DNA of 64,000 nucleotides, taken from Candidatus Delongbacteria bacterium (GTDB taxonomy: Bacteria > CAIWAD01). The translations under genes and the position numbers were made by a program. The DNA is taken from positions 288,001-352,000 of the forward strand of contig OY760505.1 of the NCBI GenBank assembly GCA_963663545.1. Reading direction: 5' to 3'. Below are positions 10,437-50,414 of the stretch, piece by piece. Below the pieces are notes generated by a model. That model was not told where the DNA came from. It saw nothing but the letters and a program-made list of their open reading frames with translations, and made no database searches. The stretch's first letter is position 1. Each line of letters begins with the position of its first letter.

Positions 10437-10445
10437 GGGCAACTC

Positions 10446-16650: not shown

Positions 16651-17151
16651 CTAGATCTCCAGAGCCTTGGCAGCCATTTCCTTGGCGGCCTGAATCGCCG
16701 TCAAGTTCGCCTCGTAAGCGCGACTGGCCGCAATCAAGTGCGTCATTTCTTCCACCAGATTGATGTCGGGATAGGCCACATAGCCGTTCTCGTCCGCGTC
16801 GGGATGGTCGGGATCGAACTCCATGCGCGGCTTGCGGTTCTGGGTCTGAATCTCCGCCTGGACGCCGTGCAGGGATTCGGGATAATCGCCCGCCTCGGTG
16901 GAGTTGATGTGATCCGGATGCGTGGTCAGGATCTCCACGCCCTCACGCTGCTCGGGATCGAAGTACTCCTGCTGCAGCTCGCCCTCGCGCATGGTGGTTA
17001 CCAGCGGCTGAAAGGGACCGCCGTTGGCGCCGCGCGTGGTGTGCACGTTGGCGATGTTCTCGCTGATGGCGTCCATGCGGCGACGCTGGGCCTGCAGCCC
17101 GCTGCGGCTGATGTCCAGATTGAAGAAAGCGGTGGGGTCCTGAATCTTCAT
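16651..17151 (-). CDS. flgC: Basal body rod protein FlgC
   Basis: ISRSGLQAQRRRMDAISENIAN; FDPDHPDADENGYVAYPDINLVEEM...SRAYEAN. Confidence 0.96.
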   Translation of the reverse strand: MKIQDPTAFFNLDISRSGLQAQRRRMDAISENIANVHTTRGANGGPFQPLVTTMREGELQQEYFDPEQREGVEILTTHPDHINSTEAGDYPESLHGVQAEIQTQNRKPRMEFDPDHPDADENGYVAYPDINLVEEMTHLIAASRAYEANLTAIQAAKEMAAKALEI

Positions 17152-17167
17152 TCTCTACACCTTGTGA

Positions 17168-17593
17168 CTAGTCCTGACCGGTGATGGCCAAACGCAGACT
17201 GCTGAATTTCTCTTGTGTCACACGCGTCTCAAAACGCCAGGTGAGCATCACACGCGCCAGCTCGGTCATTTCGCGGTCGATGTCGATGTTGTTGTGGCCG
17301 TTGAAATAGTCGGTGTTCTCGTCCACCGACAGCTTGGCCTGCACCACCTCGGCGTCGCCCGGGTGCGGCAGATGCTCGGGATGCGTGCGGGAAATCTCGC
17401 CGGAACGGTTTTCCTCCAGCGCTTCCTTCAGCTGCTCCTCGAATTCCACCACGCGACGCTGATAACCGTCCACTTCGGCGTTGGCCACGTTGTTGGCAAT
17501 GGCCTTCTGACGCAGCGCGGCCGCGTCCAGCGCGCTGTCCAGCAGGGGCAGCAGGCTGCGGCGGAAGAGCAGGTTGTCGCTGATTTCGTTCAT
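17168..17593 (-). CDS. flgB: Basal body rod protein FlgB
   Basis: LRQKAIANNVANAEVDGY; NNIDIDREM; start placed at the ATG following GGAGA. Confidence 0.93.
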   Translation of the reverse strand: MNEISDNLLFRRSLLPLLDSALDAAALRQKAIANNVANAEVDGYQRRVVEFEEQLKEALEENRSGEISRTHPEHLPHPGDAEVVQAKLSVDENTDYFNGHNNIDIDREMTELARVMLTWRFETRVTQEKFSSLRLAITGQD

Positions 17594-17654
17594 CATTCTC
17601 TCCAGGAATTCCGGTCCACGATTGCCCACGGGACCATGATCCGCGATGCTTTCG

Positions 17655-17669
17655 GCAATTCCTGTGCCA
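17655..17669 (-). promoter_or_regulatory. Sigma54 (-24/-12) promoter of the flagellar operon
   Basis: TGGCAC-AGGAA-TTGC, a perfect match to the TGGCAC-N5-TTGC consensus, ~60 nt upstream of flgB. Confidence 0.85.
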
Positions 17670-17779
17670 TGTAGCTAAGGCTAGGAGAATTCTGGTGTAA
17701 GTTCCGGAATGCAGAACTTCAGGAGTGGTGGATAGGGGGGCGTGCTTGCCCCCCTATGGAATTTGTTTCCCCCCGCTCA

Positions 17780-19128
17780 AATCGGTATCGGTGCCGACCC
17801 TGCGGGTCGGATCGCTATCGGTATCGAGGCATTGCCGTGCAGCCAGCCGTATGTATCCTATGGACGAAGGCGTGCTACTCTGTGGAACGACGCTGACAGC
17901 TGAGTTCATTTGCACGACTTCGTCGAGGTCACGTGCGCAGCGCGTGACACGCCTAGCGGCGGGGCTCTCGTCTGCGACGCAGCGAAAGAGCACCGCCGAC
18001 GCGGTGCAGGACCTACTTTTCTTTGTCGCAACAAAGAAAAGTAGGGCAAAAGAAAATGCTCGGGCTCTCCGACCCGAGGACGCTTGTCCGCTGGACAACC
18101 GCCGCGGGCGGGTACCATATGCTTGCAGCAGGGCTACGCTCATGTGTTCACACCTTCGGTGTTCACTTATGGCCTTACGGCCATTTGGGTGTGTCTGCTA
18201 TAGGGATGAGTGGCTGTATGGTTGAAGAATCGGGGCCGATTCTTCAGCCTCTTCTGACGGGAAGCCCAGTGTACACTATGGACGAAGACCCGCAATTTAG
18301 CGGAGTTGCAAATACGGTCGCACGAGATGCGGGGCTTCGTCGAGGTGCTGACCGCATAGCGGGCAGCACACCTGTATGGCTGAAGAATCGGCAGCCGATT
18401 CTTCGGCTTCTCTTCGACAGGAAGCCATTGTACACTGTGGGCGAAGACGTGCAGTTTCGTAGCGATGAGATTGCAGCAATTCATGATGCACGGGTTCGCC
18501 GAGGTGTTTTGCGAAGCAAAACACACGCGGGCGGGCACCATTTGATGGCTGAGGGGCTACGCTCATGTGTTCACAACGTAGGGCAGAATTCGCAAAGCGG
18601 ATTCTGCGAGCGACTTGACCCGAAGCAAAGCTAAGGGGCAAGTCGACGTTCACCTCTGGCCTAACGGCCATCTGGGTGAGCTGGCTTAGGGGTAGAGTGG
18701 CTGTATGGCTGAAGAATCGGCAGCCGATTCTTCGCCTTCTCTTCGACAGGAAGCCATTGTACACTGTGGGCGAAGACGTGCAGTTTCGTAGCGATGAGAT
18801 TGCAGCAATTCATGATGCACTGGTTCGCCGAGGTGTTTTGCGAAGCAAAACACACGCGGGCGGGTACCATTTATTGGCTTCTGGGCTACGCTCATTTGTT
18901 CACACCTTCGGTGTTCACTCTTGGCCTAACGGCCATCTGGGTGAGCTGGCTTAGGGGTAGAGTGGCTGTATGGCTGAAGAATCGGCAGCCGATTCTTCGG
19001 CTTCTCTTCGACAGCAATCATTGAAGGCCAGGAGGAGATTTCTCGCGAATTCGCAGAGCGGCGCAAGCGGCTCAAACTGAATGCGAGGAATCTCCGAGGT
19101 GTCGAGCACGTCGTGCTCGACACACGAG
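17780..19128. repeat. Left palindrome-rich repeat mosaic (REP/MITE-like), inverted relative to 29975-30790
   Basis: GAAGAATCGGCAGCCGATTCTTC-type palindromes at 18224, 18382, 18711 and 18976; internal direct repeats (18373-18570 vs 18702-18900); no credible protein. Confidence 0.85.
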
Positions 19129-19129
19129 T

Positions 19130-19534
19130 TCAATGCTTGAGCAGTTGCTTCAAATCGATGGTGCTTGCAGGGAAAGCGGCAAGCAGACCTTTGTCGGACG
19201 TGAAGAGGGGCACTTCCAGGCGCCGGGCCAGGGTAAGAAACTCGCAGTCGTAGGCCGGGCACGCGGATTCGTCGACACAGGAAAGCACATCAGCCGAGGC
19301 AGGCTCGTACTCCCCGCCGCTCATCAGTTCTTCCGCCTCCGTCATGAGTTGCAGAGCGGCACTTCTGCTTAGCTGACCGCCGCGCATGTACTGCGCAAGT
19401 ACGTTGCGGAACTCGCTGCGCCACAGCAGGGGAGCAAGCCAGTGGGAATCGCGCATGAACAGGGCTTCCGCATGAGGTGTGTACTCGCCCTCAATCAGCA
19501 GATAGGCAATCACATTGGTGTCCACGACAATCAT
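19130..19534 (-). CDS. vapC: Type II TA toxin, VapC/PIN family
   Basis: MIVVDTNV...E...AYDC...TSD acidic PIN motifs; start overlaps the antitoxin stop. Confidence 0.92.
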   Translation of the reverse strand: MIVVDTNVIAYLLIEGEYTPHAEALFMRDSHWLAPLLWRSEFRNVLAQYMRGGQLSRSAALQLMTEAEELMSGGEYEPASADVLSCVDESACPAYDCEFLTLARRLEVPLFTSDKGLLAAFPASTIDLKQLLKH

Positions 19535-19773
19535 GAGCGCCCCTGCGTACGCGCCTGGTCCAGTAGCTCCTGGGTCAATGCGGGCAGTTTGCGCCGACTA
19601 CGAGCGGCCGCCAGACGCTCGAGCAGCTCGTGCCTGCCCGAGGGACACGACCCCAGCGATGTGCTCAAGCGGTATAAGATTTCTCCTGCAATGCTGCGGT
19701 AGTTGGCTTGGGCACTGAATCTGATCCTCTCATACAAATCGTCGGGAATGTTCTTCAAGGTGATGGCTGGCAT
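19531..19773 (-). CDS. Antitoxin, Arc/FitA-like ribbon-helix-helix protein
   Basis: MPAITLKNIPDDLYERIRFSAQANYRSIAGEI RHH pattern; 80 aa; directly upstream of the PIN gene. Confidence 0.88.
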   Translation of the reverse strand: MPAITLKNIPDDLYERIRFSAQANYRSIAGEILYRLSTSLGSCPSGRHELLERLAAARSRRKLPALTQELLDQARTQGRS

Positions 19774-19785
19774 AGACGGCCTCGT

Positions 19786-19813
19786 GGTTCCATTTCGGTT
19801 GTGATTCGGAACC
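19786..19813. promoter_or_regulatory. Probable TA autoregulatory operator
   Basis: Inverted repeat GGTTCC-N16-GGAACC just upstream of the antitoxin start. Confidence 0.5.
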
Positions 19814-20048
19814 TAGTTTCAGCCTTGCACAAACACAAGCTACTTCCGCCTTGCTGGATTCCCTCCAGTATTTGGTCCTGAGGAAGGGGACGAGATCGTG
19901 GTGTCAGCGAACCTGCACACTTTTCTGCTCTCGTTCACCTGTTCTTTCTCATGACACGAGCGGGGCAATGGATCGGTATCTCTTTCGGCAGTGGTTTCGA
20001 CTTCCCGGAACACGTGGTCTACCGGCAATTTGGAGAAGTTGGCCGTTG

Positions 20049-20448
20049 TCAAAGCTGCGCCAGCCATTGTTTAACCAAACTTTGGATATACTCGCACTTT
20101 GCGACTGCATCCGAGTCAGACGCAAACGAAATGATGCAGCGATCCTTCGCTACCCACTTCACTAAACCCAAAACCCAGCGAATCATCCAACTGGAATTGC
20201 ACTGAATTGTCCTTGGTCTTTGCACCTCTATGAAGGATGAGCTGGAACATAGCGCCTGGATGGATCCGAAACGTTGCAAAGTGATCATCAAGGTAGAAGC
20301 TTGGAGCATTCCATTTCACTTCTTCTTGAATTCTCGTGTCTATGCCAAGAACTGCAATGCGTAGTGCTTCAATGCCCTTCTTGTACGGGTGCTGCAAGGC
20401 TACAAGGAATTCTTCAACTGACGAGGATTCTGACTTCTTCTTTGCCAT
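20049..20448 (-). pseudogene. DUF1801 (YdhG-like) protein, frameshifted
   Basis: EEVKWNAPSF motif; removing one copy of the 7-bp duplication AAACCCA (20164-20177) restores ...DDSLGLVKWVAKDRCIISF...VKQWLAQL. Confidence 0.8.
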
Positions 20449-20468
20449 CGATCATCTCATGTGTTGTT

Positions 20469-20700
20469 GGCTAACGTCGGCTTCTGCGGCACACGGCTAG
20501 TGGGTGTCGACTCGAAGCGAGTCGGGCGACGCTTGCGTCGCAAGATCTACGGGTTCGCGAAGCGAACCGGCTTTCGCTGAACCGTAACTTATGCATGCTC
20601 ACCTTCTTTGCCTTGGAGCGCCAAGGAAACCGCTACTTGTCGATAGTTCCGGAATTGTAGCGTAATTTCGCTTATAGCCAAGAAAAACAGTGTGGCTGCC
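20469..20700 (-). other. Degenerate, long attC-like site
   Basis: GTTAGCC core at 20469-20475 precedes the DUF1801 gene; several internal hairpins; no intact R'' end found. Confidence 0.5.
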
Positions 20701-20703
20701 TGC

Positions 20704-22977
20704 TCAGTCGAAAGATGCATGAACTCTGAAAAACTGCCGGGGCCACGTGTGGGAATCTAAACTGAAAGTTGTATCGGCTGTAACTTCAGCTAGCAAGCCC
20801 CATTCCTCAAAAGGAGCATATGAATCAACGGAGCTATAGATTTTATAGCCTGCGGCATACTGAACTGGATGCCAAGAGATTCTTAGACCAGTTGAGTCCT
20901 GCGAGGTGAAACTAAGTGTCGGGGCGTCTGAAAGCGAGTGTGGAAAAATCTCATCATGTAACTCGTTCAACCATGGCGTGAAATTACAGCTTCCGGAAAA
21001 GAGGTGAATCCCATCTGCAATGGAGGATGAATCCGTTGTGCCCCAATACATGAAGCCGAGATCCAGCTCAGCGGCATTGTTGTGGTAAACATTAAAGAGC
21101 CCGTTTGAATGAATATCGTTCCATTCAGAAACCGCTCCACCACCGTTCAACCCGCTGCTCTCGTTGTACAAATAGACACCATGAGTGCCATTATCAACTA
21201 TGTAACAGTTTATCAATGTCGGAGTGGAGTTTGGCCCCACATAGATCCCCGCTGTCTCGCTGTATCTGACTAAGCAGTTTGCGAAAGTGACTTCGTGGGA
21301 AGTTGACAGTCGGACACAACCAGTCGAAGAACCCGCATATTCAATTACACAGTCGGAACATCTGCAAGTTGACATCCCAAATGAATTATTAAACTGGATA
21401 CCCTTCCAATCACCGGGAGCAGGCGTTTCGCTATTTGAAGTGAAAACTATTGGTTCAAACTCGCTACCAATTGCCAGTAATGATCCCTGAGCATTTAAAA
21501 GATAATCGCCATTGAACCTAAGTGTGCACCCGGGCGCAATCTCCAGACTATCACCCGCCTGAACAAGTAAATCATCATCAATGATGTATGGAACATTGTA
21601 GTTATTCCAATATCCGCGACAACCATCTCCTTCGACTACTAGAATACCCTGAAAGGCATTATCATGCAAATTGAGCGGACCTGTGATGTTTGAAACACTT
21701 ACAGCCTCTAAAATTATCGGATAATCATCACAGTCCATGATTTCGCAATTATTCATTTCGACTTCGCAATCTATACCCAAACATATACCTGGACCAGAGC
21801 ATTCGCCTATTACACAATCATCGAAACATGCACGCGAGCTACTTATTGAAAACCCTCCGTACAAAGAAAACTGAATGTTGGAATTGCTAATGTTAACATT
21901 GCCCTGGGAAACTCTGACTGATCCGTTGGAGCTTGAACCGGCGTAGAAAATATCACAGAAGTTTAACCTTGAATCCCGTGAACCTGGATTGAAGGTAAAA
22001 CCGGCCCAATCACCTGCCGCTGGTGATTCATTATCAGAAGTGAAAGTAATCCTGGCTTCAGGTGTGCCTTCCGCAATTAGGGTTCCCGCAACGTTGACTG
22101 AAGCCGGATTAGTTGATACACCAGAAAGCCGTATGATATTGCCTGGATCAATTATTAATGTATCACCTCCTGCAATGCTAACAGATGCGTTTTGTATAAC
22201 ATACGGAACGCCAAAACTTGCCCAGCGCCCCTCAGTTAAACCATTTGCAGTAACAAGGATTGCATCTGTTGCATTTCCATAGATTTCCATGTCTCCGGTA
22301 ATTTCATTCACTCCAGATGCTGATGTCTCAATAGGGTACCCGCCGTTGTTGATAATGGTGCAGTCATTTATGTATGGTTCGGAATAGTAAACGCTTGTAC
22401 CTCTACAGATAACGCCGCCTGCTGCATTATTCCGTATCACGCAGTTCGTAATGGATGCATTATGGACTGTACTAGGCGTGCCGGTGTGAGCCGCGATTTG
22501 TATTCCATATGATGATGAATGCTGAATCGTGCTGTTGGCAATGAGTTTGTTGTCATCGTCGCCGATAACATAGATACCGCTACTCCCAGCATAAGAAATG
22601 TCGCAATAGTCGAATATCACACTATCTGAAGTTGTAGAGTAGAAGCCATTCCAATCTCCAGGATTTGGATTGGGAGAACTGGAGGTGAAGATAATCCGCT
22701 GAGTTAGAGTTCCGATTGCCTGAAGTGACCCGTGTATATAGACTGTTATCCTAAATTGTGCCTCAGCATCAAACTGAACATAGCATCCTGGTAAAATGAT
22801 CAGCGTTGCTCCCGTTCCGATCGTTAATCCTGCCCAGACAACATGTGGATTATCAGCTGGCGACCACACCTCATCCTCAAACAAATGACCGGAATGATAG
22901 GTTTGGGCCGATAGTGTAAGAGGCAAGAAAAGCAGACTCAGTATAACAACTAATTGCTGGACACAAATGCGATTCAT
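20704..22977 (-). CDS. Secreted right-handed parallel beta-helix repeat protein with FN3-like C-terminal tail
   Basis: Signal peptide after a GGAG RBS; three I(I/T/V)FTS....P.(P/A)GDW.G repeats; N/G/I-rich beta-helix turns; AT-rich. Confidence 0.8.
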   Translation of the reverse strand: MNRICVQQLVVILSLLFLPLTLSAQTYHSGHLFEDEVWSPADNPHVVWAGLTIGTGATLIILPGCYVQFDAEAQFRITVYIHGSLQAIGTLTQRIIFTSSSPNPNPGDWNGFYSTTSDSVIFDYCDISYAGSSGIYVIGDDDNKLIANSTIQHSSSYGIQIAAHTGTPSTVHNASITNCVIRNNAAGGVICRGTSVYYSEPYINDCTIINNGGYPIETSASGVNEITGDMEIYGNATDAILVTANGLTEGRWASFGVPYVIQNASVSIAGGDTLIIDPGNIIRLSGVSTNPASVNVAGTLIAEGTPEARITFTSDNESPAAGDWAGFTFNPGSRDSRLNFCDIFYAGSSSNGSVRVSQGNVNISNSNIQFSLYGGFSISSSRACFDDCVIGECSGPGICLGIDCEVEMNNCEIMDCDDYPIILEAVSVSNITGPLNLHDNAFQGILVVEGDGCRGYWNNYNVPYIIDDDLLVQAGDSLEIAPGCTLRFNGDYLLNAQGSLLAIGSEFEPIVFTSNSETPAPGDWKGIQFNNSFGMSTCRCSDCVIEYAGSSTGCVRLSTSHEVTFANCLVRYSETAGIYVGPNSTPTLINCYIVDNGTHGVYLYNESSGLNGGGAVSEWNDIHSNGLFNVYHNNAAELDLGFMYWGTTDSSSIADGIHLFSGSCNFTPWLNELHDEIFPHSLSDAPTLSFTSQDSTGLRISWHPVQYAAGYKIYSSVDSYAPFEEWGLLAEVTADTTFSLDSHTWPRQFFRVHASFD

Positions 22978-23172
22978 TTGGACACTCCCTGAGATAGACG
23001 AAAATTGAGAACACTGCAATTCCCAGACCTACGCCATCTCCATATGAATAACAATTGTTTACTGCCGTAATCTGTTTAATTGGAAGACCCAAAATGTACA
23101 TTTTCGTTCACCGTATATAGGTATGTAAATGATATTTCACTGGTATTCTTTGATTGCGGATTCTGCTTCTCT

Positions 23173-23247
23173 GCCTAACGGCGAGCATGAACCGCGTCGT
23201 GAAGGCCGTCGGCGGCCTTCACGTCGCGTTCCATGCTCTTGTTAGCT
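23173..23247 (-). other. attC site
   Basis: Minus strand AGCTAAC-aagagcatggaacgcgacgtgaaggcc...ggccttcacgacgcggttcatgctcgcc-GTTAGGC; the upstream gene's TAA lies in R''. Confidence 0.92.
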
Positions 23248-25305
23248 GTCCGTCTTCTTCTCCGCAATTGCACATAGCCAAGGAATGCTCTTACTTCCTC
23301 TCTCCTCAATCTCTCGCGCTATCTTCCTGACGAGGAACCCGTTCCTCTCAAGCACTCCAGTGAGAGAGCCGAAAGTATGAAATTGAAAAAAGCGTCCGCC
23401 GAGCCCCTCTTCAGTATCAAGAAAAGACAGACCATCTCCCTCTTTCGTCATCACAAAAAGGAGTCCGTGCGGTCGAAGAACGCGGTTGGATTCCGCCAAA
23501 GCTGCATCAGCCATAACTCCTTTTGCGATCACAGGCAAATGAAGAAGGGAAGCATTCTGCCTAACGACATCGAATGACTCCCCCTCGAAGTGGGAAAGAT
23601 CACGCATGTCGCATTCGACCACGCTTCCGTCAGTAAGAATACCAACTTGGATTTTATCCTCAATCATCCTGACAAAGGCAGGGCACTTCTCGATTCCCAC
23701 TGCGTCGATCTTTAACACGTTTTGAGCGTAATCGAGATCGCGACCGTTACCCGTCGCCACGTCAAGGATCCGGGGGCGTTCGAGCCCAAGGGCAGAGGCA
23801 CAGTGCGACAACATTTCACGCCACAGCCTCTTGTCCAAATCGTGAGGCTCCGTCCAGCGTATCTCCGCGTAACGATTAGCTCCGCAATCGTATGTTGATA
23901 CTGTCAGGTCAATCAATCGCTCTGCAAGAGCTACTGCGGCGCTCTGCGCGGCATGCCTGTCAGCGGGGTGACATTCGGTTATGCCTTGCAGAAGGTTCGC
24001 GAGTTCCGCTGTCATGTCATAACCAGATGTCATGTTTCGTCTCCTTATTGTATCCATGATCGTAGATGTCGTGTGTTCTCTTCCGTCGACTTCCGGTGTC
24101 TCCCGGAAAAGCCCCCAATATGCGCACTCCCTGGGACCCAATTTGAACAGGACGGGTGGTGACTCTCGGGCACTCAGCCCCGAGATCCGCTCACTCATTG
24201 TGCGGGCCACAACAAAAGCGTTGTATAGCGGAATATCCAGGATTCCGTGTACTAGCTCAAACGCACGGCATCCCTTAATCAAGGCGAGGTCAGCGAGGCG
24301 CACGAGGCCGCGCACCTCTGGCGATAGCTTGGTCCAGTTCAGGGCGGCCAGCGAAGGACCACTGGCAGTCCAAAAGAAGCGACCAGTGGCCGACAAGCCC
24401 CGCAGTTCACGGTATGGCGGAAGATGGAGAATCTGCAGTAGCTGCTGCAAACTGAGGTCATTACCATATTCTGCCCTTTTCGGCACCACGCACACGCTGG
24501 TGTGCCTCGCGTGACGGAGAAGCTCTTGGACAACCAGCAAGTCGAAGAACGACTCTATCACATCATCGGTGAACCACAGCACCAGTGCGGAGTGACCGAA
24601 GTCCTCAACAAACGCCTCAAACTCGAAGAGTGGTGTTGGGTGCAGGGCGCGTGATATGAGCTGTTCCAGGTAGCGCTCCGCGTCCTCGTCCGTGAGAGGT
24701 CTACCAACGTAGTCGGCGAGTGGTATGCCCACATCGCGAACAGTGGAGGCCGCGCTCGAGGCTCCCTTTAGATCGAGGCCAGAACACCCTGCTGCAATAG
24801 CCAATCGAACGAACTCCGAAAGGTCATGTTGGCCCGCCTCGCGCAATCGAAGAACGACGCGCGGAAGCAAGTCAAAGGCAAGGCGGTTGAACTCCGCATG
24901 GGAAGGCTTGGTCTCGTAGCCGTCGCGTAGAGCTGTGGCCCGCACAACCCGGCAGACTACATCCGGAATCTCTTGATTCCAGAGGGAGCGCGCGAGGATC
25001 CTTCCCCGGTGGGACAGGGCCAGAAACCGCTTCAGTTCGGCTATGCACGCGTCGGATAGGCGATGTGTCTCTTTCGAGCCGATCCCAGGGATGCACCGGT
25101 TGATGTACTCAAGTACTTGATCGCGGATCCAGTCGTCGGCGGATGGCTCACTGTCACCAAGCTCGACGAGATGTGTGCGCCGGTCATGGAGAGTAAAGGA
25201 CATGGGCAAGACTTCCGCGCTATAGCTTCCAACCTCACTAACGTCGAAGAAAGGGAAGTCATCACCCAGGAGATCCGCGAGTTCATCCATTGTCTTGATC
25301 CCCAT
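23242..25305 (-). CDS. Fusion of a DUF89/ARMT1-like metal-dependent phosphatase domain and a class I SAM methyltransferase
   Basis: WFTDDVIESFFD, YGND and ADLALIKGCRAFE resemble DUF89 motifs; C-terminal ILDVATGNGRD, CDMRDL, NASLLHLP are MTase motifs. Confidence 0.7.
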   Translation of the reverse strand: MGIKTMDELADLLGDDFPFFDVSEVGSYSAEVLPMSFTLHDRRTHLVELGDSEPSADDWIRDQVLEYINRCIPGIGSKETHRLSDACIAELKRFLALSHRGRILARSLWNQEIPDVVCRVVRATALRDGYETKPSHAEFNRLAFDLLPRVVLRLREAGQHDLSEFVRLAIAAGCSGLDLKGASSAASTVRDVGIPLADYVGRPLTDEDAERYLEQLISRALHPTPLFEFEAFVEDFGHSALVLWFTDDVIESFFDLLVVQELLRHARHTSVCVVPKRAEYGNDLSLQQLLQILHLPPYRELRGLSATGRFFWTASGPSLAALNWTKLSPEVRGLVRLADLALIKGCRAFELVHGILDIPLYNAFVVARTMSERISGLSARESPPVLFKLGPRECAYWGLFRETPEVDGREHTTSTIMDTIRRRNMTSGYDMTAELANLLQGITECHPADRHAAQSAAVALAERLIDLTVSTYDCGANRYAEIRWTEPHDLDKRLWREMLSHCASALGLERPRILDVATGNGRDLDYAQNVLKIDAVGIEKCPAFVRMIEDKIQVGILTDGSVVECDMRDLSHFEGESFDVVRQNASLLHLPVIAKGVMADAALAESNRVLRPHGLLFVMTKEGDGLSFLDTEEGLGGRFFQFHTFGSLTGVLERNGFLVRKIAREIEERGSKSIPWLCAIAEKKTDS

Positions 25306-26131
25306 CGTCCTTCATCTGATCACCATTGCCTTGATCCCACAGGTGGTCGAAATACGTGTTCAGCTTCGCGTATCCATGAGATCCCTTTCGAAAGACGATC
25401 ATCGGCAACCTCACTGGTGCGTCGCAGGAGAGGATGTTCGGCGAGAAGTAGCACCTATCGCTGAAAATGATGCATGTGCAGTACGGAGCTTGCATGTAGA
25501 AGCGATGGCTTATGGGGTGTTTGGAGAATGTCCGGTTCAAGTTGCCGATAGAGGCGACGGTGCTCTGTATGTCGATTGCGATTAGGGGCTCCTTCTCAAA
25601 CTCAGGGGTCTCAATTCTGGCCCGGTTGGTGGTCTCTGGCGCTTCTGGATGGGACAAGAGTGCCTTGACTGACACTGCTCCCGTCTCCTCGCTGAGTGAA
25701 CATATCTTGTAGATTGATCTGTAAAATGGGCCTGTTTGATTGAAGAAAACCCGAAGGGAAACTCCCACAAGCTTCACCTCGCCAGTAGTTGCATTGTCGA
25801 ATGCCGATTTAAGCGATATGAACGCGTTGTCAGGATACTCGTTCTGTTCGCGATCCTTGTAGACCCGGATGATGCCACCCTCCGCCAAATCCCGGAAAGC
25901 GGTCCAAATCGTGTCGGCGTCCTCCCGCTGCTTCACATGGTCGTAGAAGAAGCCCACCAAGAGGGGAAAGAGGATGCATGATCCCACCTGCGCGACAAGA
26001 AGAAGGACAATGGCCTTGAGAAGGCTTACGCTTGTCAACTGAGTGTTGAAGAGGGGGATCAGTAGGGAGATCGAGACGAGAAGGGATGAAACGGTTACCC
26101 AGAAGATGAACCAGTATCGCGTTTGCTTCAT
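25283..26131 (-). CDS. Two-TM membrane protein with DUF5919-like (PLD-like fold) cytoplasmic domain
   Basis: True start MKQTRYW at 26131 (the longer ORF runs through attC); two hydrophobic helices; VKLVGVSL, LLSHPEA...RARIE, FDHLWD patterns; overlaps the next gene. Confidence 0.6.
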   Translation of the reverse strand: MKQTRYWFIFWVTVSSLLVSISLLIPLFNTQLTSVSLLKAIVLLLVAQVGSCILFPLLVGFFYDHVKQREDADTIWTAFRDLAEGGIIRVYKDREQNEYPDNAFISLKSAFDNATTGEVKLVGVSLRVFFNQTGPFYRSIYKICSLSEETGAVSVKALLSHPEAPETTNRARIETPEFEKEPLIAIDIQSTVASIGNLNRTFSKHPISHRFYMQAPYCTCIIFSDRCYFSPNILSCDAPVRLPMIVFRKGSHGYAKLNTYFDHLWDQGNGDQMKDDGDQDNG

Positions 26132-26146
26132 TGTATGTTTCCCCAC

Positions 26147-26274
26147 AGCTAACGTGGTGTCCAGTGGGTGGGCGTCGAATCGCGACAGCCGACCAGAGAA
26201 CGAAATTTGTTGAGTGAAGACAGTGGTTAACAAAGGCGCGCTGTCGCCTGATCCACTGCAACACATGGTTAGCC
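26147..26274 (-). other. attC site
   Basis: Minus strand GGCTAAC-catgtgttgcagtgg...ccactggacaccac-GTTAGCT, 128 bp, with inner gcgacagc/gctgtcgc stem. Confidence 0.88.
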
Positions 26275-26275
26275 A

Positions 26276-26929
26276 TCATGCAGAAGGCAAAGTAAGTTTG
26301 TTAAGCTTTTCTACAAACGAGGAGGCTGAAGACCAGAAGAAGTCAGCGACTTCGTCAGCGAAATAATGCCAATTACTTCCCTCCTCTATGTGTCTTGATT
26401 CTAGAAGACCTTTCTTCAACAGGAAGTCCTCGACCTTTTTGTAGCCGCCGGAAAACTCTTCTTCCCAGAAGCCCCCAACGGCTGGTGGAAAGCACAGTTT
26501 ATAGCCAACCGCCCGACCGTGAGCAATGACATTCCTGAAATAGAACAACGTCTTTACGTTTTCCCAAAGCGCTGGATCACCGATGGTTTCGCTGGCTTTT
26601 TTTCCAACAACTAGCGAAAAGACTTCATCGTAGTTTTCGCTTCCGGTTGTTTTGGCAACGCGAAGACGAAGATCGTCTATAAGGCGCTTGTATAGAGGTA
26701 GAGAGTGTTCGCCACCTGTATTGATGTTCTTAATCAGGATGCGTTCGAAGTTGCCTTCGATAAAGTATGCAGAAGCAAGAATGATGGAATAGTTTATTCC
26801 CGATCGGATCGCCTCCGAGAGGTCTGGAGATGTTCTTTGCGTCGTTTGCCATTCAATCCACGGTGGGATGCACTCGAAGACATGAAAAGATTCGTGCGCT
26901 ACCGACCAGTTGCTAGGAGTAGATGCCAT
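26276..26929 (-). CDS. Hypothetical cassette protein with HEPN-like R-x4-H motif
   Basis: Helical protein with YFIEG...FRNVIAHG; sole gene between two attC sites. Confidence 0.6.
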   Translation of the reverse strand: MASTPSNWSVAHESFHVFECIPPWIEWQTTQRTSPDLSEAIRSGINYSIILASAYFIEGNFERILIKNINTGGEHSLPLYKRLIDDLRLRVAKTTGSENYDEVFSLVVGKKASETIGDPALWENVKTLFYFRNVIAHGRAVGYKLCFPPAVGGFWEEEFSGGYKKVEDFLLKKGLLESRHIEEGSNWHYFADEVADFFWSSASSFVEKLNKLTLPSA

Positions 26930-26942
26930 GATTCCCTCTAAG

Positions 26943-27005
26943 GGCTAACGCTGCTTTTCAGCGGGCGCAGGCTTTTTGCGATCCTCTGCAAAAGCCTTGT
27001 TAGAT
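26943..27005 (-). other. attC site
   Basis: Minus strand ATCTAAC-aaggcttttgcag...ctgaaaagcagc-GTTAGCC, 63 bp. Confidence 0.92.
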
Positions 27006-27008
27006 TTA

Positions 27009-28394
27009 TCATCTCCTAATTTCCCGTATTATCCCTGGTATGTCTGAATGTTCGTTAACCCAAATCACAGAAACACCGAGTTTATTGAATGTTGACTCCT
27101 CTAACCCTCTAAACACGTTAGATATCTTATTTATGTCTCCAATATTTTTCAGACTTTTATTAGGTTTCCAGTGGTCTTTTAGGATTGCGTAATGGCGTAC
27201 CCCAGGTCTCTTTCTATGAGATATCTCCAATAATCTGCGTAAATTTGGATCGGTCATGCTTAAGCCCACAAAAAGACAAACATTATTTCTGAGTAAATTC
27301 AATTGTGTAATGTTTGTCCAGGCGTAAGGATCATTAAACTGAGAATGGTATGCCTCTTCACTTAATACCAATGATTCTCGGTATTTAGTGTTCAATTTCC
27401 CCTTAAAGGGAAGAAAACCATGGGGATGGAATACAGGTAGCTCGTTTTTAGATGGAATATCACCTTCAGAAACAATTACATAATAATCAACAGACCTCTT
27501 CTGCAGTTCAATTTCTAAAATTTCATCGTAGTTGTATGTTACTAACCCGACCAAGCCTTGGCGCTTTCTTCCTGGCACACACAAAGCGCCAATCTCTTCG
27601 ACTAATTCAGAGCTTTTTGTGGAATCAAAATTTAAATAAAGACTTCTTCTAACATACTCTGGAAAATTATTGCCCAAGCTGTCTCTCAAAATTCTAGCAG
27701 TTATCAAAGGGGATGCAGGAATTTCAGATTTGAAATAATTCACTAAAGAGCCTTTGCTACTCTTTAAACTTTTGAACGCAGGGTTTTTTCCAACAAGTGA
27801 TATAGATAAACTATTTAGCAGACTTTCCCATGATGGGAGCCCCGATGCCAATGATATTCCGGCACCAAGAAATAAAACTAATTGGTCCTCAAGATATGCA
27901 GACTTAAGTGAAGCTAAGTTCTGTTTTGTAATTGCATTTACATCTCGGTCCTCAAATATCTCTACTGCTTGGTTTAAATATTTTCTATCGTAAGTGAATG
28001 CGGCTTCAGGATTTTGCGAGGATAATCGCTCTACCTCTTCTTTTCCGTAGATTTCTATGACATTATTAGGAAACCGATCATGCAAATTGGCTTTTAATTT
28101 ATTCAGGCGAGAGGAACTCTGATTTGTAACTAAAAGGATGCTTGCAAAATTATAGTTGGTTCTAAATGACCTGTCTATTACTTTTCTCAAGCTTTCCCAT
28201 GATGCTAAATACTTAATCTCAATTACACATGGCCCCGGCAAATTTAAAATTCCGTCTGGTGCGATTGCATTGAACCCATAGTCCGAACCTGTTTCAGGGC
28301 CGGCGAGAAGTATCTTATTTTCTTTTCGGGATACTGCCCTAAGTATATTAAGAACATAACTTTCAAATTGGAAAGCGTGCAAAATATCTTGCAT
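27009..28394 (-). CDS. SIR2-family (SIR2_2-like) protein with N-terminal restriction-endonuclease-like domain
   Basis: LFLGAGIS..SGLPSW, TYNYD, HPHG, FVGLSMTDPN; N-terminal VIEIK; start moved downstream of attC (RBS GAGGTG). Confidence 0.85.
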   Translation of the reverse strand: MQDILHAFQFESYVLNILRAVSRKENKILLAGPETGSDYGFNAIAPDGILNLPGPCVIEIKYLASWESLRKVIDRSFRTNYNFASILLVTNQSSSRLNKLKANLHDRFPNNVIEIYGKEEVERLSSQNPEAAFTYDRKYLNQAVEIFEDRDVNAITKQNLASLKSAYLEDQLVLFLGAGISLASGLPSWESLLNSLSISLVGKNPAFKSLKSSKGSLVNYFKSEIPASPLITARILRDSLGNNFPEYVRRSLYLNFDSTKSSELVEEIGALCVPGRKRQGLVGLVTYNYDEILEIELQKRSVDYYVIVSEGDIPSKNELPVFHPHGFLPFKGKLNTKYRESLVLSEEAYHSQFNDPYAWTNITQLNLLRNNVCLFVGLSMTDPNLRRLLEISHRKRPGVRHYAILKDHWKPNKSLKNIGDINKISNVFRGLEESTFNKLGVSVIWVNEHSDIPGIIREIRR

Positions 28395-28420
28395 TCCTAT
28401 CACCTCTATCATTTCACGAA

Positions 28421-28506
28421 ATCTAACGTTTGGGCTCAGGGGCGTCAAAAAGCGGAGCGAGGAACGAGCGCAGCTTTTTGACGTCCCTTTGAGCCCATTG
28501 TTATGC
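28421..28506 (-). other. attC site
   Basis: Minus strand GCATAAC-aatgggctcaaagggacgtcaaaaagc...gctttttgacgcccctgagcccaaac-GTTAGAT; the upstream gene's TAA lies in R''. Confidence 0.93.
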
Positions 28507-29427
28507 AAATTCTATTTCTTGGTGTCGTTTTAGCCAGCTTATAATCTCTGTTTGATCTCGAAGGTCTAGGCGCCATTGATGGTGCTCCTTTGCTTGTTGC
28601 TGAGCTGCCGAAGTGAAGCGACTGGTAGTTGCAATCATTCCCATAGTTGCCCTGAACTCTTCATTTACCCAATACATTACATTTCTTACTATCGATATAT
28701 CCACGGGATTACTTTGTGAGTGTCTTTTGCACTCCACGATTAATTTCACCGGTACACCCTCAATAAACTTGGACGATACAGCAATTATATCAGGACCTGG
28801 TGCATTGTTTCGTTTTACTAAATCAACAGCCCATCCATCTGCTTTAAGCAATTCGGCCACCATATTCTCAAAATCGCGTGGTGATACTATTTCCAACTCT
28901 TCAGGGTGCTCAATTAAATATTTAATATCCTTTTTTGTAATTTTAGACAGGAGTATTACAGAAGTTTCATCTCCTTCAAAAGCAGGCTCTTTTATATGCT
29001 TTAGTGCGAGGATTACTTGCTTTTTGAACTCAGCCTTGCTGTCGTAGCTGCTAATAACTCTTGACTCGGCAATCTTACCAAGTAGCGCACCGTAACTTGG
29101 ACGGTTATCTATTGCGTGCTTCGTAGATATTAAACCAGAGCGCCGTATAAAAAAGAAAACAGGCTTCCCAAAACTTTCCGCCAATTGAGTTTCAAATATA
29201 ACTCCAGGAACATTAACGTCATGTACCATCGTCCCCATTCTTGTTCCCAGAATGGTTAACACCGCGTCACATTGTTGAATAGAGCGGTTTAGGATTTCTT
29301 GAACAGTGAGTGTGGTAGCTGGAAAATATTCCCACATTACCGGAATGTGGCCAGCCGATAATATCGCATCTCTTGCGATTTCCCGTTCTTCCGCCATTTC
29401 AGACGTAGAACTGATGAAGATTCTCAT
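28501..29427 (-). CDS. DUF4062 domain + Mrr-like restriction endonuclease
   Basis: MRIFISST..MAEER...WEYFPA (DUF4062); SPRDFENMVAELL...PDIIA...VECKRH...TTSRFT (Mrr_cat PD-(D/E)xK). Confidence 0.85.
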   Translation of the reverse strand: MRIFISSTSEMAEEREIARDAILSAGHIPVMWEYFPATTLTVQEILNRSIQQCDAVLTILGTRMGTMVHDVNVPGVIFETQLAESFGKPVFFFIRRSGLISTKHAIDNRPSYGALLGKIAESRVISSYDSKAEFKKQVILALKHIKEPAFEGDETSVILLSKITKKDIKYLIEHPEELEIVSPRDFENMVAELLKADGWAVDLVKRNNAPGPDIIAVSSKFIEGVPVKLIVECKRHSQSNPVDISIVRNVMYWVNEEFRATMGMIATTSRFTSAAQQQAKEHHQWRLDLRDQTEIISWLKRHQEIEFA

Positions 29428-29450
29428 TCCATTTCGGCTCTGGTTTTCAT

Positions 29451-29510
29451 GCATAACATCTGATTCTACGGACCGTATAAGAACAGCCCTTGTGCCTTAT
29501 GCGGGTCCTG
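29451..29510 (-). other. First recombination core of the array (attI or eroded attC)
   Basis: GTTATGC core at 29451-29457 complements R'' of the first cassette; only a short residual hairpin upstream. Confidence 0.55.
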
Positions 29511-29974
29511 ATAAGTACGACAACCACATTGCTGCTTCTCTGTGCTTCCCATCCAATGTGTCCCTGAGAGTAGATATTCGGAGTAGGCAAAACAAGAGAA
29601 ATCACGGCTTTGTCCAGAATACATATCACCCGAAGTCGGCCCTGCAGCCTTCTCCAGGAATCTGTTTGCCTGCCCTACATAATCTCTTATCCCGACACAG
29701 AACGCGTACTTATCTGGGCAGACTTATCCTGACAGAGCCAGAGCTCCCGCCCTCCCTCCACGCCACCAGCCAATGACCATTTTCAGATTTCTGCATTCGT
29801 ACAGAAAGCAAGCCATTCATGTGCGTGCTGAGGGACATCGGGCCTTCCCTGTCATTGGGACGCGCACTCGACACCGTCGACTAGACTTCGGACCTCGCAC
29901 ATCGTCTAGTCGTTCGACGAAGCCGTGCTTCAGGTCTTTGCCATCTGCGCCTCGCTGCGAATATGCACGGCTTC

Positions 29975-30790
29975 AGTCCGTGTGTGTCCCGCGCTTTCAC
30001 GCGTGACTCCTCGGAGACTTCTCGCATTCGGTTTGAGCCGCTTGCGCCGCTCTGCGAATTCGCGAGAAATCTCCTCCTGGCCTTCAACGATTGCTGTCGA
30101 AGAGAAGACGAAGAATCGGCTGCCGATTCTTCAGCCATGCAGCCATCCTACCCAACAGCAAGCCCACCGAAATGGCCGCAAGGCCAGAGGTGAACGTCGA
30201 CTTACCCCTTAGCTTTGCTTCGGGTCAAGTCGCTCGCAGAATCCGCTTTGCGAATTCTGCCCTTCGGCGTGAACCAATGAGCGCTGCCCTCCAGCCATCA
30301 AATGGTGCCCTGCCCGCGTGTGTTTTGCTTCGCAAAACACCTCGACGAAGCCCCGCGCAAAACGTACCCGTACATGAAACTCCAGCCAATTGCGGGTCTT
30401 CGTCCATAGGATACAATGGGTTCCTACCGATGAAAGGATGAGACATGTCCCCTGCAGCCAGCCGTCTGTGAACGTCGACTTTGCTCGCAAAGTCGATCCG
30501 TCGACTTTGCCAAGCAAAGTCGATCGTGAACTCGTTAGCGTATCCCAAGGCATCAGCCATGCCCGACCAGGCGTCCTCGACGAGTCGTCGAGGGCCTCTG
30601 GGCGGGCGAGCGTTTTCTTTGCGCCACTTTCTTTGACGCGACAAAGAAAGTGGCATCTTCTTCGCTTAGCGCCAGCGTAAGCCCCGCGCCAGCGGCAAAG
30701 AGAGGACATCAGCCGAAAGGCAGCGCCTCGATACCGATTCGACTCCGATAGGAGTCGGCACCGATCCCGATACCGATACCGACTCAAGAA
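29975..30790. repeat. Right palindrome-rich repeat mosaic, inverted copy of modules in 17780-19128
   Basis: 30000-30135 matches 18975-19110, 30180-30345 matches 18495-18660, 30605-30655 matches 18015-18062 and 30727-30780 matches 17780-17830, all as reverse complements. Confidence 0.85.
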
Positions 30791-30859
30791 AATGGTGCAG
30801 AAGGGGCGCCCATCCCCTTGCTTTTTGCCCAGCAAAACCTGTTCTTTTGTTCACCTTTT

Positions 30860-32089
30860 ATGAACGCCAACGACTCGACATTCTGGCTCCACCTGCGGCT
30901 GCCCGACTTCGCGGTGCAGGTCGAAGAGCAACTGAATCCGGCCCTGCGCCGGTGTCCCTTCGCCCTCTGCACCAGCCTGGACGGCCACGGTCGCGTGCTG
31001 GCGCTGAGTCCAGCGGTGGAGCTGCCCGGCTTTCGCAAGGGCCATTCGGTGGGCGAGCTGCGAAGGCGCAGCGGCGAGGTGGAATGCCTGCCCTTTCAGC
31101 CCGCGCGCCTGCGCGCGGTTCACACTCGAGTGCTGCAACTGCTGCAGGAGCGCGTGCCCGCGGTCAGCGCCAGCGGCAGCACCGGGTTCAGCATAGCCCT
31201 GGCGGGTTGCCGTCACCTCTTCGCCAGCGCCGGGGATCTGGGACTGGAACTGCGCTCGCTTCTTTCGTCACGCGAGGGACTGCACTCGGCCATCGGGCTG
31301 GCCTCCAGTGCCCTAGGTGCGAGGCTGATCGCGCGGCGCGCTGAGGCGGGCGAAATCTGCGCTCTGGAAGAGGAAGAAGTGCAGAAGCTGCTGGATTCCT
31401 TTCCGCTGACCTGGCTGCCGGGGGTGGGCGGCCTGCGCGAGGAGCTGGCGGAGCTGGGCCTGCACCTCATCGGCGACGCACGCCTGCTGGATCCGGCCTG
31501 GCTGCGCCGCGTCTGTGGCGACCGCGCCCGTCTGCTCCTGCGCTCCTTGGGCGAGCTGGAACCGGGCCCGCGCCTGCGTTCGCTGCAAGTGGCCCGCCTA
31601 CAGGTGAAGGACGCGCACAAGGCAGCGACACACAAAACGCCCCTGCGCGTGGAGCGTTCGTTGCCGGTGGCCCAGAGCGATCCGGGCGCTCTCTGGCAGG
31701 AGCTTTTCGGTCTGCTGGACGAGGCCGCCCAGCGGCTACATGCGCTGGATCTGGAAGCGCGTCGTCTGCTATTGGCGGTGGAATGGGACGATGGTCGCGT
31801 CCTGCTGCGAGGCGCACCTGTGCTGCGGGAGCCGGGCGATAGCGCGCTGGCCGCGTTGCGTCACTGCGGTCGCGGGCTGCTGAGTCGTGCGCTGGACAGT
31901 CGCCGTCTGCGGGTGCGCGCCCTCAAGGTGGAGTTGGGATCGCTTTCGCAAGCGCCCCACACCGTCGACCTGTTCGCGGCGGCACAGCAGGAAAAGCTGC
32001 AGCGGCTGGAGAGCTCCCTGGGCGGCATCCGCTCGCGCTACGGCGGCAGCAGCATCCGACGCGGTATCTGTGGCGGGGCGGAATCGTGA
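30860..32089 (+). CDS. imuB: ImuB-like catalytically inactive Y-family polymerase
   Basis: Y-family layout (NPALRRCP, SAIGLAS, PLTWLPGVG, C-terminal DLF...IRSRYG) without the catalytic D/DE residues; upstream of dnaE2. Confidence 0.8.
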   Translation: MNANDSTFWLHLRLPDFAVQVEEQLNPALRRCPFALCTSLDGHGRVLALSPAVELPGFRKGHSVGELRRRSGEVECLPFQPARLRAVHTRVLQLLQERVPAVSASGSTGFSIALAGCRHLFASAGDLGLELRSLLSSREGLHSAIGLASSALGARLIARRAEAGEICALEEEEVQKLLDSFPLTWLPGVGGLREELAELGLHLIGDARLLDPAWLRRVCGDRARLLLRSLGELEPGPRLRSLQVARLQVKDAHKAATHKTPLRVERSLPVAQSDPGALWQELFGLLDEAAQRLHALDLEARRLLLAVEWDDGRVLLRGAPVLREPGDSALAALRHCGRGLLSRALDSRRLRVRALKVELGSLSQAPHTVDLFAAAQQEKLQRLESSLGGIRSRYGGSSIRRGICGGAES

Positions 32090-42106: not shown

Positions 42107-42134
42107 AGCGCGTATCACACAAGTCGAGTTCCCC

Positions 42135-42167
42135 GGGGTCGCGAGGATTTCCTTCGCGGCCCCTTTT
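42135..42167 (+). terminator. Rho-independent terminator
   Basis: GGGGTCGCGA...TCGCGGCCCC-TTTT after the peptidase stop. Confidence 0.75.
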
Positions 42168-42173
42168 GCTTCA

Positions 42174-42221
42174 TCGATACCGATCCGACGCCGATGGTGT
42201 CGGCACCGATAGCGATAGCGA
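42174..42221. repeat. Solitary REP-like (GATACCGAT) element
   Basis: TCGATACCGATCCGAC...GTCGGCACCGATAGCGAT resembles 17780-17830 and 30727-30780. Confidence 0.65.
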
Positions 42222-42343
42222 TTTAAGACAGGCTTAACACTCCCGTCATTTCTCCGTGCAGAGCAGCAAGAGTCCAACCTTCGCAGAACTCGTTCAATAC
42301 TGTAGTTTCAGCACTTAGCAGCGACCCGCGCCTCCAAGCTGAG

Positions 42344-42396
42344 GGCATGAAATTTGCATCATTAATGGATCTACTCTGAATCGTGGGACATTCAGA
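42344..42396 (+). promoter_or_regulatory. Sigma54 promoter plus conserved 5' leader hairpin
   Basis: GGCAT-GAAAT-TTGCA, then CTACTCTGAATCGTGGGACATTCAGA (25/26 identical to the leader of paralog 1). Confidence 0.7.
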
Positions 42397-42423
42397 TGAC
42401 ATTCATAGACACGGGGAGACCTC

Positions 42424-50329: not shown

Positions 50330-50414
50330 GATCTCTCCTCCTTGCACTCTTTCGCAACTAAAGGGAAAGCGCGGCCGCCGCACGAAGCGGCGACCGCATC
50401 AAGTATCACCTCAG

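Follow-up and report, generated by a model that had tools for sequence, protein, structure and literature searches.

A conserved two-gene cassette in Candidatus Delongbacteria: a two-helix pseudo-PLD membrane protein and a DUF89/ARMT1-like methyltransferase fusion

In CBASS, Pycsar and type II Thoeris, which are compared here through the PADLOC models, an enzyme gene lies beside the gene of a small membrane protein with a soluble domain that looks like a ligand binder. The same layout is found in a stretch of 64,000 nucleotides (nt) from a Candidatus Delongbacteria bacterium (contig OY760505.1, positions 288,001 to 352,000), in the following called the window, where two genes on the minus strand fill positions 23242..26131: gene 1, for a membrane protein of 282 amino acids (aa), and gene 2, for a soluble fusion protein of 687 aa. 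Like the described systems, the cassette is a mobile pair with a patchy distribution and with SIR2 and Mrr neighbours. Unlike them, it has no CD-NTase, cyclase or TIR and no match in PADLOC; its enzyme is a putative phosphatase-methyltransferase, the soluble domain of its membrane protein is a pseudo-phospholipase D (pseudo-PLD) domain with an invariant Cys, and its relatives are linked to selD, the gene of selenophosphate synthetase.

The pair is a conserved, uncharacterised module. The reading that we favour, tentatively and with rather less than even confidence, is that it constitutes a self-contained, horizontally mobile module of a small-molecule pathway that acts on a phospho-sugar or nucleotide at the membrane, and not a demonstrated immune system. 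The initial annotation, which was made from the DNA sequence alone, had recognised no named system in the pair, and the searches of PADLOC, NCBIfam and the literature agree: PADLOC v2.0.0 has no family that matches either protein at E<=0.1, the pair is not described in the literature found with DUF89 or ARMT1 together with phage, TIR or defence terms, and the sole immunity paper that these searches returned with both ARMT1 and phage concerns an unrelated nitrogen-fixation neighbourhood.

Folds and conserved sites of the two proteins

Gene 2 (23242..25305, minus strand) is an open reading frame (ORF) for a soluble protein with two domains. Residues ~32-400 (24106..25212, minus strand) form a DUF89/ARMT1-like phosphohydrolase domain, identified by PF01937 and by Foldseek, and residues ~457-683 (23257..23937, minus strand) form a class-I S-adenosylmethionine (SAM)-dependent methyltransferase domain, identified by PF08241/PF13649 and by Foldseek. 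PF01937 matches residues 139-358 with 31.7 bits against a cut-off of 25 (E 1.2e-7). The AlphaFold2 model of the protein (pLDDT 91.1, pTM 0.89) finds the DUF89 structures 2g8l (E 4.8e-10, TMt 0.78) and 2ffj (TMt 0.75), which are weakly matched by sequence as well, and full-length relatives of the fusion are P0114-P0116 and those of loci L001 and L003. The motifs DDVIE (247-251), GND (281-283) and KG (344-345), to which the initial annotation had drawn attention when it proposed these two domains, are kept in all of 27 close relatives. Conserved positions of the DUF89 domain are NQE110-112, D178, K180, D247, D248, E251, D255, N282, D283, K344-G-C-R347 and E350. K180, K344-G-C-R347 and E350 are likewise kept in 27/27 close relatives, and seven of the positions (D247, D248, N282, D283, K180, R347 and E350) are present in 19 of 19 sequences when distant fusions are included.

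Consider then how this domain compares with the DUF89/ARMT1 damage-control phosphatases, exemplified by S. pombe Duf8901 and P. horikoshii PH1575 (2g8l). According to the accessible text of PMC9062747, an aspartyl-phosphate forms on Asp248, the nucleophile of Duf8901, the metal is bound by Asn249 and Asp286, and the human member of the DUF89 family is a phosphatase and not a methyltransferase. Gene 2 shares with these enzymes the fold and, as far as the motifs and the alignment with 2g8l place them, the nucleophile Asp (D247), the second metal-binding Asp (D283) and the KG..E signature. It differs from them in the residue beside the nucleophile, where the metal-ligand Asn is replaced by Asp (D248) in 27/27 close and 19/19 distant sequences, as matched by motif and by alignment with 2g8l; in its score of 20 bits with the NCBIfam damage-control model, for which the cut-off is 440; and in its fusion partners, which in this clade are a methyltransferase, TIR, HIT or PNP and not a pantothenate kinase. 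Judged by its residues, the DUF89 domain looks active, with a clade-specific change from Asn to Asp.

The methyltransferase domain scores 41.2 bits with Methyltransf_11 (PF08241; cut-off 21.2), its motif I reads LDVATGNGRD, and D515, G519 and G521 are kept in 21-22 of 22 sequences. Its Foldseek matches are METTL6 (7f1e, E 5.3e-11), phosphoethanolamine N-methyltransferase and UbiG-type enzymes, so that by its predicted fold it resembles small-molecule methyltransferases. When the fusion protein and residues 66-282 of gene 1 were submitted together to complex prediction, the score was 0.00 ('no answer'), a result that weighs neither for nor against an interaction.

Gene 1 (25283..26131, minus strand) is an ORF for two transmembrane helices, a stalk helix and the pseudo-PLD domain. 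The transmembrane helices, placed by hydropathy and by the model at residues ~7-28 and ~35-62 (25946..26113, minus strand), correspond to Kyte-Doolittle averages of at least 1.6 over 19-residue windows centred at 15-26 and 37-54, and no such segment occurs in the 687-aa protein. An AlphaFold2 model based on 38 homologues (pLDDT 90.2) has helices at 2-28 and 37-84 followed by an alpha/beta domain, and in the second transmembrane helix F55 is nearly invariant and P56 invariant among the 38. The cytoplasmic domain, residues ~85-268 (25328..25879, minus strand; Foldseek and alignment), gives 43 matches to the PDB at E<=1e-3, all of them of the PLD fold, among them TrmBL2, vaccinia F13, Nuc (1byr, TMt 0.61), NucT (6ehi), FAM83, PLD3, bacterial PLDs and PssA (8yr6). 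The protein has 112 relatives at E<=1e-3, and the soluble domain is highly conserved among them. Sequence profiles return nothing for it in Pfam (E<=0.1), NCBIfam or PADLOC, and nothing below E 0.8 in the PDB.

Catalytic PLD enzymes carry the motif HxK(x)4D...GSxN, with a catalytic His and a catalytic Lys. At the corresponding position, the strand of gene 1 reads APYCT...SPN, and among the 38 homologues there is no conserved His or Lys; the best candidates, H252 (82%) and H263 (79%), both lie outside the core. The proposal of the initial annotation, a protein with two transmembrane helices and a soluble domain without an HxK motif, is thus borne out. Invariant in the 38 homologues are instead R94, E95, R127, R170, E174, P216-Y-C-T219 and N232, and A215-P-Y-C-T219, R94, R127, R170, E174 and P231-N232 are still invariant at 27-30% identity and in one form that lacks the transmembrane helices. 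According to the model, gene 1 is a PLD fold without the classical chemistry, in which a strictly conserved, Arg-rich and Cys-containing site has been kept, and the invariant signature is no less compatible with an enzyme than with a passive sensor. PLD folds without working HKD motifs are also known from the C-terminal domain of TrmBL2 (5bpd), which gives the best Foldseek E value (1.7e-6), and from the DUF1669 domain of FAM83 (5lzk). Unlike these, gene 1 has its own APYCT...PN signature and an anchor of two transmembrane helices; the TM-scores with TrmBL2 are low (0.31-0.41), and there is no sequence relationship.

The PLD-like domain is combined with different N-termini: two transmembrane helices, a Metallophos domain that takes their place in L014, or a soluble domain (P0111). 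Fused or longer forms of gene 1 were not found in the range of 567-2000 aa, a negative result of little weight. The likeness to DUF5919 (PF19319) that the initial annotation saw in gene 1 survives only as one look-alike cluster of the ESM Atlas (rank 3, score 0.95), in which 31% of the members carry PF19319; the Pfam model matches none of the 38 homologues at E<=1, membership is rejected, and a literature search on DUF5919 found no paper.

The pair and its partners in other genomes

When 185,579 species genomes were searched with the alignment of the gene 1 family, 14 loci emerged, which fall into five types. Behind the membrane gene, L001 (Bipolaricaulota) and L003 (Roseburia) carry the fusion gene in full. 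L011 (Methanothrix) has a split form, with a methyltransferase gene after the membrane gene and, 2.6 kb upstream on the opposite strand, an ARMT1-like gene. Operons of five genes, with the membrane gene, the orthologous methyltransferase, a middle gene of 425 aa, a small nucleotidyltransferase and an 'AIR synthase-related' gene, are found in L002 (Acidobacteriaceae), L004-L006 (Streptomyces) and L010 (Glycomyces), while L007, L008, L009 and L012 (Streptomyces) have the 'AIR synthase-related' gene only. In the distant relatives L013 and L014, the methyltransferase is of another kind and is joined to a nucleoside-deoxyribosyltransferase-like domain, and a further partner of 525 aa is weakly similar to sugar-phosphate isomerases.

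The initial annotation had asked for conserved pairing of the homologues, and this is what the loci display. The full fusion adjoins the membrane gene in 2/14 loci; an orthologous methyltransferase (E 1e-36 to 1e-52) lies within ~2.3 kb of it in 8/14, as a separate gene beside it in L002, L004-L006, L010 and L011; and at least one enzyme gene adjoins it in all 14. The pairing is conserved across phyla, which rules out that two unrelated genes have become neighbours by chance. Two further metagenomic pairs of gene 1 and gene 2 relatives come from contigs of equal size (5976 and 7945), a coincidence of size only. Beyond the operons, the neighbours vary from locus to locus. The distribution is patchy and spans bacteria and archaea, transposases flank L003 and L004, and tblastn searches with gene 1 and with residues 1-450 of gene 2 gave no match in collections of 72,556 plasmids and 50,697 phage records.

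The 'AIR synthase-related' gene is a genuine selD, which is adjacent in nine of the 14 loci. Its product matches E. coli SelD (PDB 3u0o, E 4.8e-61), scores 222-306 bits with TIGR00476 (cut-off 125) in all four cases tested, and has the motif GGCxCK in 9/9. The selD stop codon overlaps the start of the membrane gene in four loci, and in L002 selD stands at the other end of the operon. The four Streptomyces loci L007, L008, L009 and L012 are two-gene units (~6850-8775 per locus) in which the overlap joins selD to the two-helix pseudo-PLD gene, and it is possible that this unit is an undescribed pair for selenium utilisation. Literature queries that combined selD with PLD or nucleotidyltransferase terms did not bring up the cassette pair. 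The genes named as those most commonly overlapping selD in the accessible text of bioRxiv 10.1101/2022.04.13.486033 are selA, TIGR04348 (senB), selU, yedF and DUF3343.

Five of the 14 loci also have a ROK-like kinase and a nucleotidyltransferase like NMN adenylyltransferase (NMNAT). The former is the 425-aa middle gene, which resembles ROK/ASKHA sugar kinases (PDB 1woq, E 7.8e-5); homology of this gene to the ARMT1-like domain was considered and rejected, at an hhalign probability of 0.6%. The latter is nearest to archaeal NMN adenylyltransferases (1f9a, E 9e-11), with scores below the cut-offs of their families. An operon of selD, a kinase and a nucleotidyltransferase looks like a biosynthetic layout. 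A described counterpart is the sen cluster for selenoneine (SenA, SenB and SenC), where SenB uses selenophosphate and a UDP-sugar (bioRxiv 10.1101/2022.04.13.486033, accessible text). Like it, the relatives have selD in an operon with possible sugar-activating enzymes (9/14 loci). Unlike it, they have no homologue of SenB (TIGR04348) or of EgtB among the 16 operon proteins scanned, the window cassette has no selD, and the candidate for handling selenium would be the membrane pseudo-PLD, a protein that the accessible text does not mention.

A tree of 15 membrane proteins, which covers every locus and was built after five rows had been freed of spurious N-terminal extensions, places the nine selD-linked proteins in one well-supported clade (100/99), with those of the window, L001, L003 and L011 outside it and in unresolved order. 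The Rfam families found in 11/14 loci (L008, L009 and L012 were left out) amount to one tRNA, with no riboswitch.

The cassette and its array

The two minus-strand ORFs fill 23242..26131 exactly, a cassette of 2.9 kb. Their overlap measures 23 nt, which shrinks to 8 nt should gene 2 begin at its second ATG (25290); the start of gene 1 is an ATG that matches the start positions of its homologues. The cassette is housed in a low-GC stretch at ~19.8-29.5 kb (GC 0.37-0.57) of a chromosome with 0.6 GC, and this low-GC array is flanked by a flagellar operon and by an imuB/dnaE2 pair.

The downstream (3') border is an attC-like site at 23175..23245 (minus strand), an inverted repeat of 71 nt, CTAAC...GTTAG(GC), that forms an imperfect hairpin of 26 nt with bulged bases directly after the stop of gene 2. 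As DNA it folds with -29.5 kcal/mol (z -7.54, equalled by 0/200 shuffles), and it is by far the top attC-like candidate in the scan of the window. The upstream (5') border at 26143..26275 (minus strand), GGCTAAC...GTTAGCT, is called from motif and position and spans from the stop of a 217-aa gene to 12 nt before the start region of gene 1; when its bottom strand is folded, both cores and two inner stems pair, weakly (z -1.8, equalled by 13/200 shuffles). A third attC-like element, at 26943-27007, follows the SIR2 gene (z -2.0). Since the core words alone are no rarer in the window than expected by chance (8 matches against a shuffle mean of 6.6), the sites were called from their position after three successive stop codons together with their fold, without a calibrated attC model. 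Between the two genes there is no attC-like site, in line with the single overlapping unit of the initial annotation, and no tyrosine-recombinase domain of an integron integrase was found among the 29 larger ORFs scanned in the window. We accept the two genes as one attC-bounded cassette in an integrase-less array, that is, a cluster of attC sites within the window. No Rfam family, riboswitches included, matches positions 17000-31000 at E<=0.1.

SIR2, Mrr and HEPN cassettes had been named as neighbours in the array, and Pfam recovers the first two. A DUF4062+Mrr_cat gene (29454..28501) and a SIR2_2 gene (28508..27009; ThsA/LmuA/Dsr1-like in PADLOC, with E 3.8e-17 for the ThsA/Dsr1-like match), both on the minus strand, overlap by 8 nt, and since the SIR2 gene alone is followed by an attC-like site, the two resemble another two-gene cassette. 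The HEPN assignment has no such backing: the single-gene cassette at 26276-26929 (minus strand) encodes the 217-aa protein, in which an RNVIAH (Rx4H-type) motif, the reason for the HEPN call, is seen by eye and for which Pfam, NCBIfam and PADLOC give no match. On the other side, the adjoining cassette at 20704-23019 (minus strand) encodes a 771-aa protein with a right-handed beta-helix, NosD-like and with an N-terminal signal-like segment, a cargo unrelated to defence. At the left end of the array, 19130-19534 (minus strand), lies an ORF for a PIN domain of 134 aa, which may be the toxin of a toxin-antitoxin cassette.

Inverted copies of a repeat of ~200-220 nt (18156-19103 and 30005-30420; 88-89% complementary) flank the low-GC array; the left copy is tandemly reiterated with a spacing of 329 nt, and the repeat contains the palindrome GAAGAATCGGCAGCCGATTCTTC. 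Elsewhere in the window, a 2697-aa FliK-like hook-length protein (2349-10442, minus strand) has many DNA repeats of ~140 nt, which gave false attC-like matches in the scan, and 37925-46611 and 47753-59078 are tandem duplicates with a Peptidase_C25 pair of 1393/1395 aa and sets of 876/953 aa and 874/950 aa that carry sorting tails of the type IX secretion system (T9SS).

Pathway, defence and other explanations

From the genes, folds, motifs, cassette borders, co-conservation and partner sets we infer catalytic steps, a substrate class and a biological role, all of which, like any use of selenium by the window cassette, are put here conditionally. Gene 2 would be a soluble two-step enzyme, in which the DUF89-type domain would remove, and possibly transfer, a phosphate by way of an aspartyl-phosphate intermediate, and the fused SAM methyltransferase would then methylate the same metabolite. 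Its substrate would most likely be a phosphorylated ribose or other sugar, or a compound of nucleotide type, because most of the fusion partners of the clade make or cut (ADP-)ribose-phosphate compounds. Gene 1 would place its PLD-fold domain on the inner side of the membrane, with the His-Lys chemistry replaced by an Arg-rich, Cys-containing pocket (APYCT...PN), and would make, carry or consume the phospho-intermediate there instead of just serving as an anchor. The sister clade would combine this membrane protein and methyltransferase with an NMNAT-like nucleotidyltransferase, a sugar kinase and selenophosphate synthetase, and because of these partners the following scheme is plausible: an activated sugar or nucleotide acceptor and a donor of (seleno)phosphate type would meet at the pseudo-PLD, the product would be dephosphorylated by the DUF89 domain, and a methyl cap would be added. 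In favour of such a pathway are the biosynthetic partners, including the overlap with selD, the methyltransferase that is common to both clades, the pocket with its invariant Cys and the intact catalytic motifs.

Several observations weigh against it. There is no selD in the 64-kb window, nor in the DNA examined at L001, L003 and L011, and the link to selenium may have arisen in a single event, because the nine selD-linked proteins form one clade. PLD folds without His and Lys have non-catalytic precedents in TrmBL2 and FAM83, which are among the Foldseek matches, and the cassette itself stands among SIR2 and Mrr cassettes. Further points come from the fusions of the ARMT1-like domain. An exhaustive search with residues 1-450 of gene 2 gave 189 cluster representatives, and domains were scanned in 51 of 150 listed representatives, namely 46 of the 50 longer than 640 aa and five shorter ones. 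Twelve of the 51 have the ARMT1-like domain and a methyltransferase in ~700 aa, like the window protein; ten have an N-terminal TIR domain, six of them together with a methyltransferase; three have HIT; and one has a PNP_UDP_1 domain that matches the CBASS 'PN-superfamily effector' of PADLOC (E 2e-20). Single cases carry metallo-beta-lactamase, Metallophos, NUDIX with PPDK, guanylate kinase, UDPGP or MFS. This repertoire is one of nucleotide- and NAD-centred conflict proteins and fits immunity better than biosynthesis.

The TIR fusions are an observation in their own right. In P0191, P0197, P0202, P0209, P0213, P0215, P0216, P0226, P0240 and P0249, all metagenomic, a TIR domain and a DD-type ARMT1-like domain, often with a methyltransferase, form one large chain (P0226 has a Metallophos domain as well), and literature searches found no description of the TIR-ARMT1-like-methyltransferase architecture.

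The strongest rival, plausible and in our estimate little less probable, is a defence of the abortive-infection type, in which the phosphatase-methyltransferase would make or edit a nucleotide or sugar-phosphate messenger upon infection, the pseudo-PLD would bind the messenger, and the transmembrane helices would damage the membrane. Besides the layout of an enzyme and a two-helix protein with a domain like a ligand binder, the ThsA/Dsr1-like SIR2 gene and the DUF4062-Mrr pair of the array speak for it; the exchange of TIR, PNP, HIT, metallo-beta-lactamase or Metallophos domains at the N-terminus of the ARMT1-like and methyltransferase module resembles effector swapping, and the PLD-like domain changes its N-terminus too; the second transmembrane helix is conserved, with its invariant P56; and the distribution is patchy, with transposases by L003 and L004 and a PD-Lambda-2_C gene by L004. 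Phage defences have also been reported from integron cassettes, as far as the accessible text of bioRxiv 10.1101/2024.07.02.601719 goes.

What speaks against a defence is the tight link to selD, the sugar kinase and the NMNAT-like enzyme (9/14 loci), which is hard to square with a signal triggered by infection because such a signal would depend on scarce selenium. The invariant Cys of the pocket suggests chemistry more than mere binding, neither protein matches PADLOC, the plasmid and phage collections hold no homologue, and the TIR fusions are only distant, at 20-25% identity. Known defence genes are also rare beside the relatives, for which the initial annotation had proposed a test of defence-island enrichment: among 57 locus proteins compared with PADLOC, there was a PD-Lambda-2_C homologue beside one of the 14 loci and one weak pVip-like match in L012, and nothing else. 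The former, in L004, is a 'Beta protein' (4986-6107; PF14350; PADLOC PD-Lambda-2_C, E 1e-33) that lies upstream, by ~700 nt, of selD, with which the five-gene operon begins; the operon is followed by a DDE transposase of insertion-sequence (IS) type. Residence in metabolic operons, which the initial annotation had named as evidence against a defence function, is found in part, since the membrane gene accompanies a genuine selD in nine loci. Of its signalling-defence proposal, the domain calls, the single unit and the pairing have held and the conflict-type fusions are in its favour, and the selD operons, the scarcity of defence neighbours and the Cys signature speak against it. The pathway reading is placed slightly ahead of the defence reading, and they are in part compatible, since the messenger of a defence could itself be the product of such a pathway.

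Quite improbable is a role in envelope or lipid modification, with the two-helix PLD-like protein as a transferase of phosphatidyl or phospho groups, like half a cardiolipin or phosphatidylserine synthase, and with the soluble enzyme preparing or finishing a methylated head group. The PLD-fold matches do include the phosphatidylserine synthase of E. coli (8yr6), phosphoethanolamine and phosphatidylethanolamine N-methyltransferases are among the many enzymes that the methyltransferase resembles, and gene 1 is anchored by two transmembrane helices, of which cardiolipin synthases also carry two at their N-terminus. However, the His and Lys of the phosphatidyl-enzyme mechanism are absent from all homologues, each chain has a single PLD-like half, genes of lipid synthesis are missing from the operons of all 14 loci, and selD and NMNAT-like partners do not fit the synthesis of head groups.

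Very unlikely indeed is an addiction pair, in which the membrane protein would be a toxin that the enzyme neutralises and the cassette array would thereby be stabilised: two-gene cassettes in chromosomal integrons commonly encode a toxin and its antitoxin, overlapping genes, as seen here, are frequent in such pairs, and the array has a PIN-domain ORF, but 282 and 687 aa are far above the usual sizes, the membrane protein has varying partners (the fusion, a five-gene operon or SelD alone) and yet an invariant pocket, and both enzyme domains keep their full catalytic motifs.

To return to the small-molecule pathway, a bolder and distinctly improbable extension would unite it with defence. Here, the two-helix pseudo-PLD family would stand at the end of small-molecule pathways of an unrecognised class, as their last enzyme or their receptor. 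One clade would draw on selenophosphate, a further selenium trait beside selenocysteine, selenouridine and selenoneine, and in the window clade the protein would be packaged with the DUF89-methyltransferase as a mobile cassette for conflict with phages or mobile elements, by means of a dephosphorylated, methyl-capped messenger of ribose or nucleotide type; with NAD as the starting material, TIR-DUF89-methyltransferase fusions would yield a molecule of this kind too.

The relatives raise a serious rival to the defence reading, a small-molecule pathway with links to selD, which goes beyond what the initial annotation could see from the sequence alone. At 2.9 kb and two genes, the cassette is small enough to be directly testable under either reading. 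Should the defence reading be true, the cassette would add a new enzyme chemistry, phosphatase and methyltransferase, and a new receptor fold, the pseudo-PLD, to messenger-based immunity, and it would give a function to the unreported TIR-DUF89-methyltransferase proteins. Should the link to selD be functional, the membrane family would mark an undescribed route of selenium use in Actinomycetota and Acidobacteriota.

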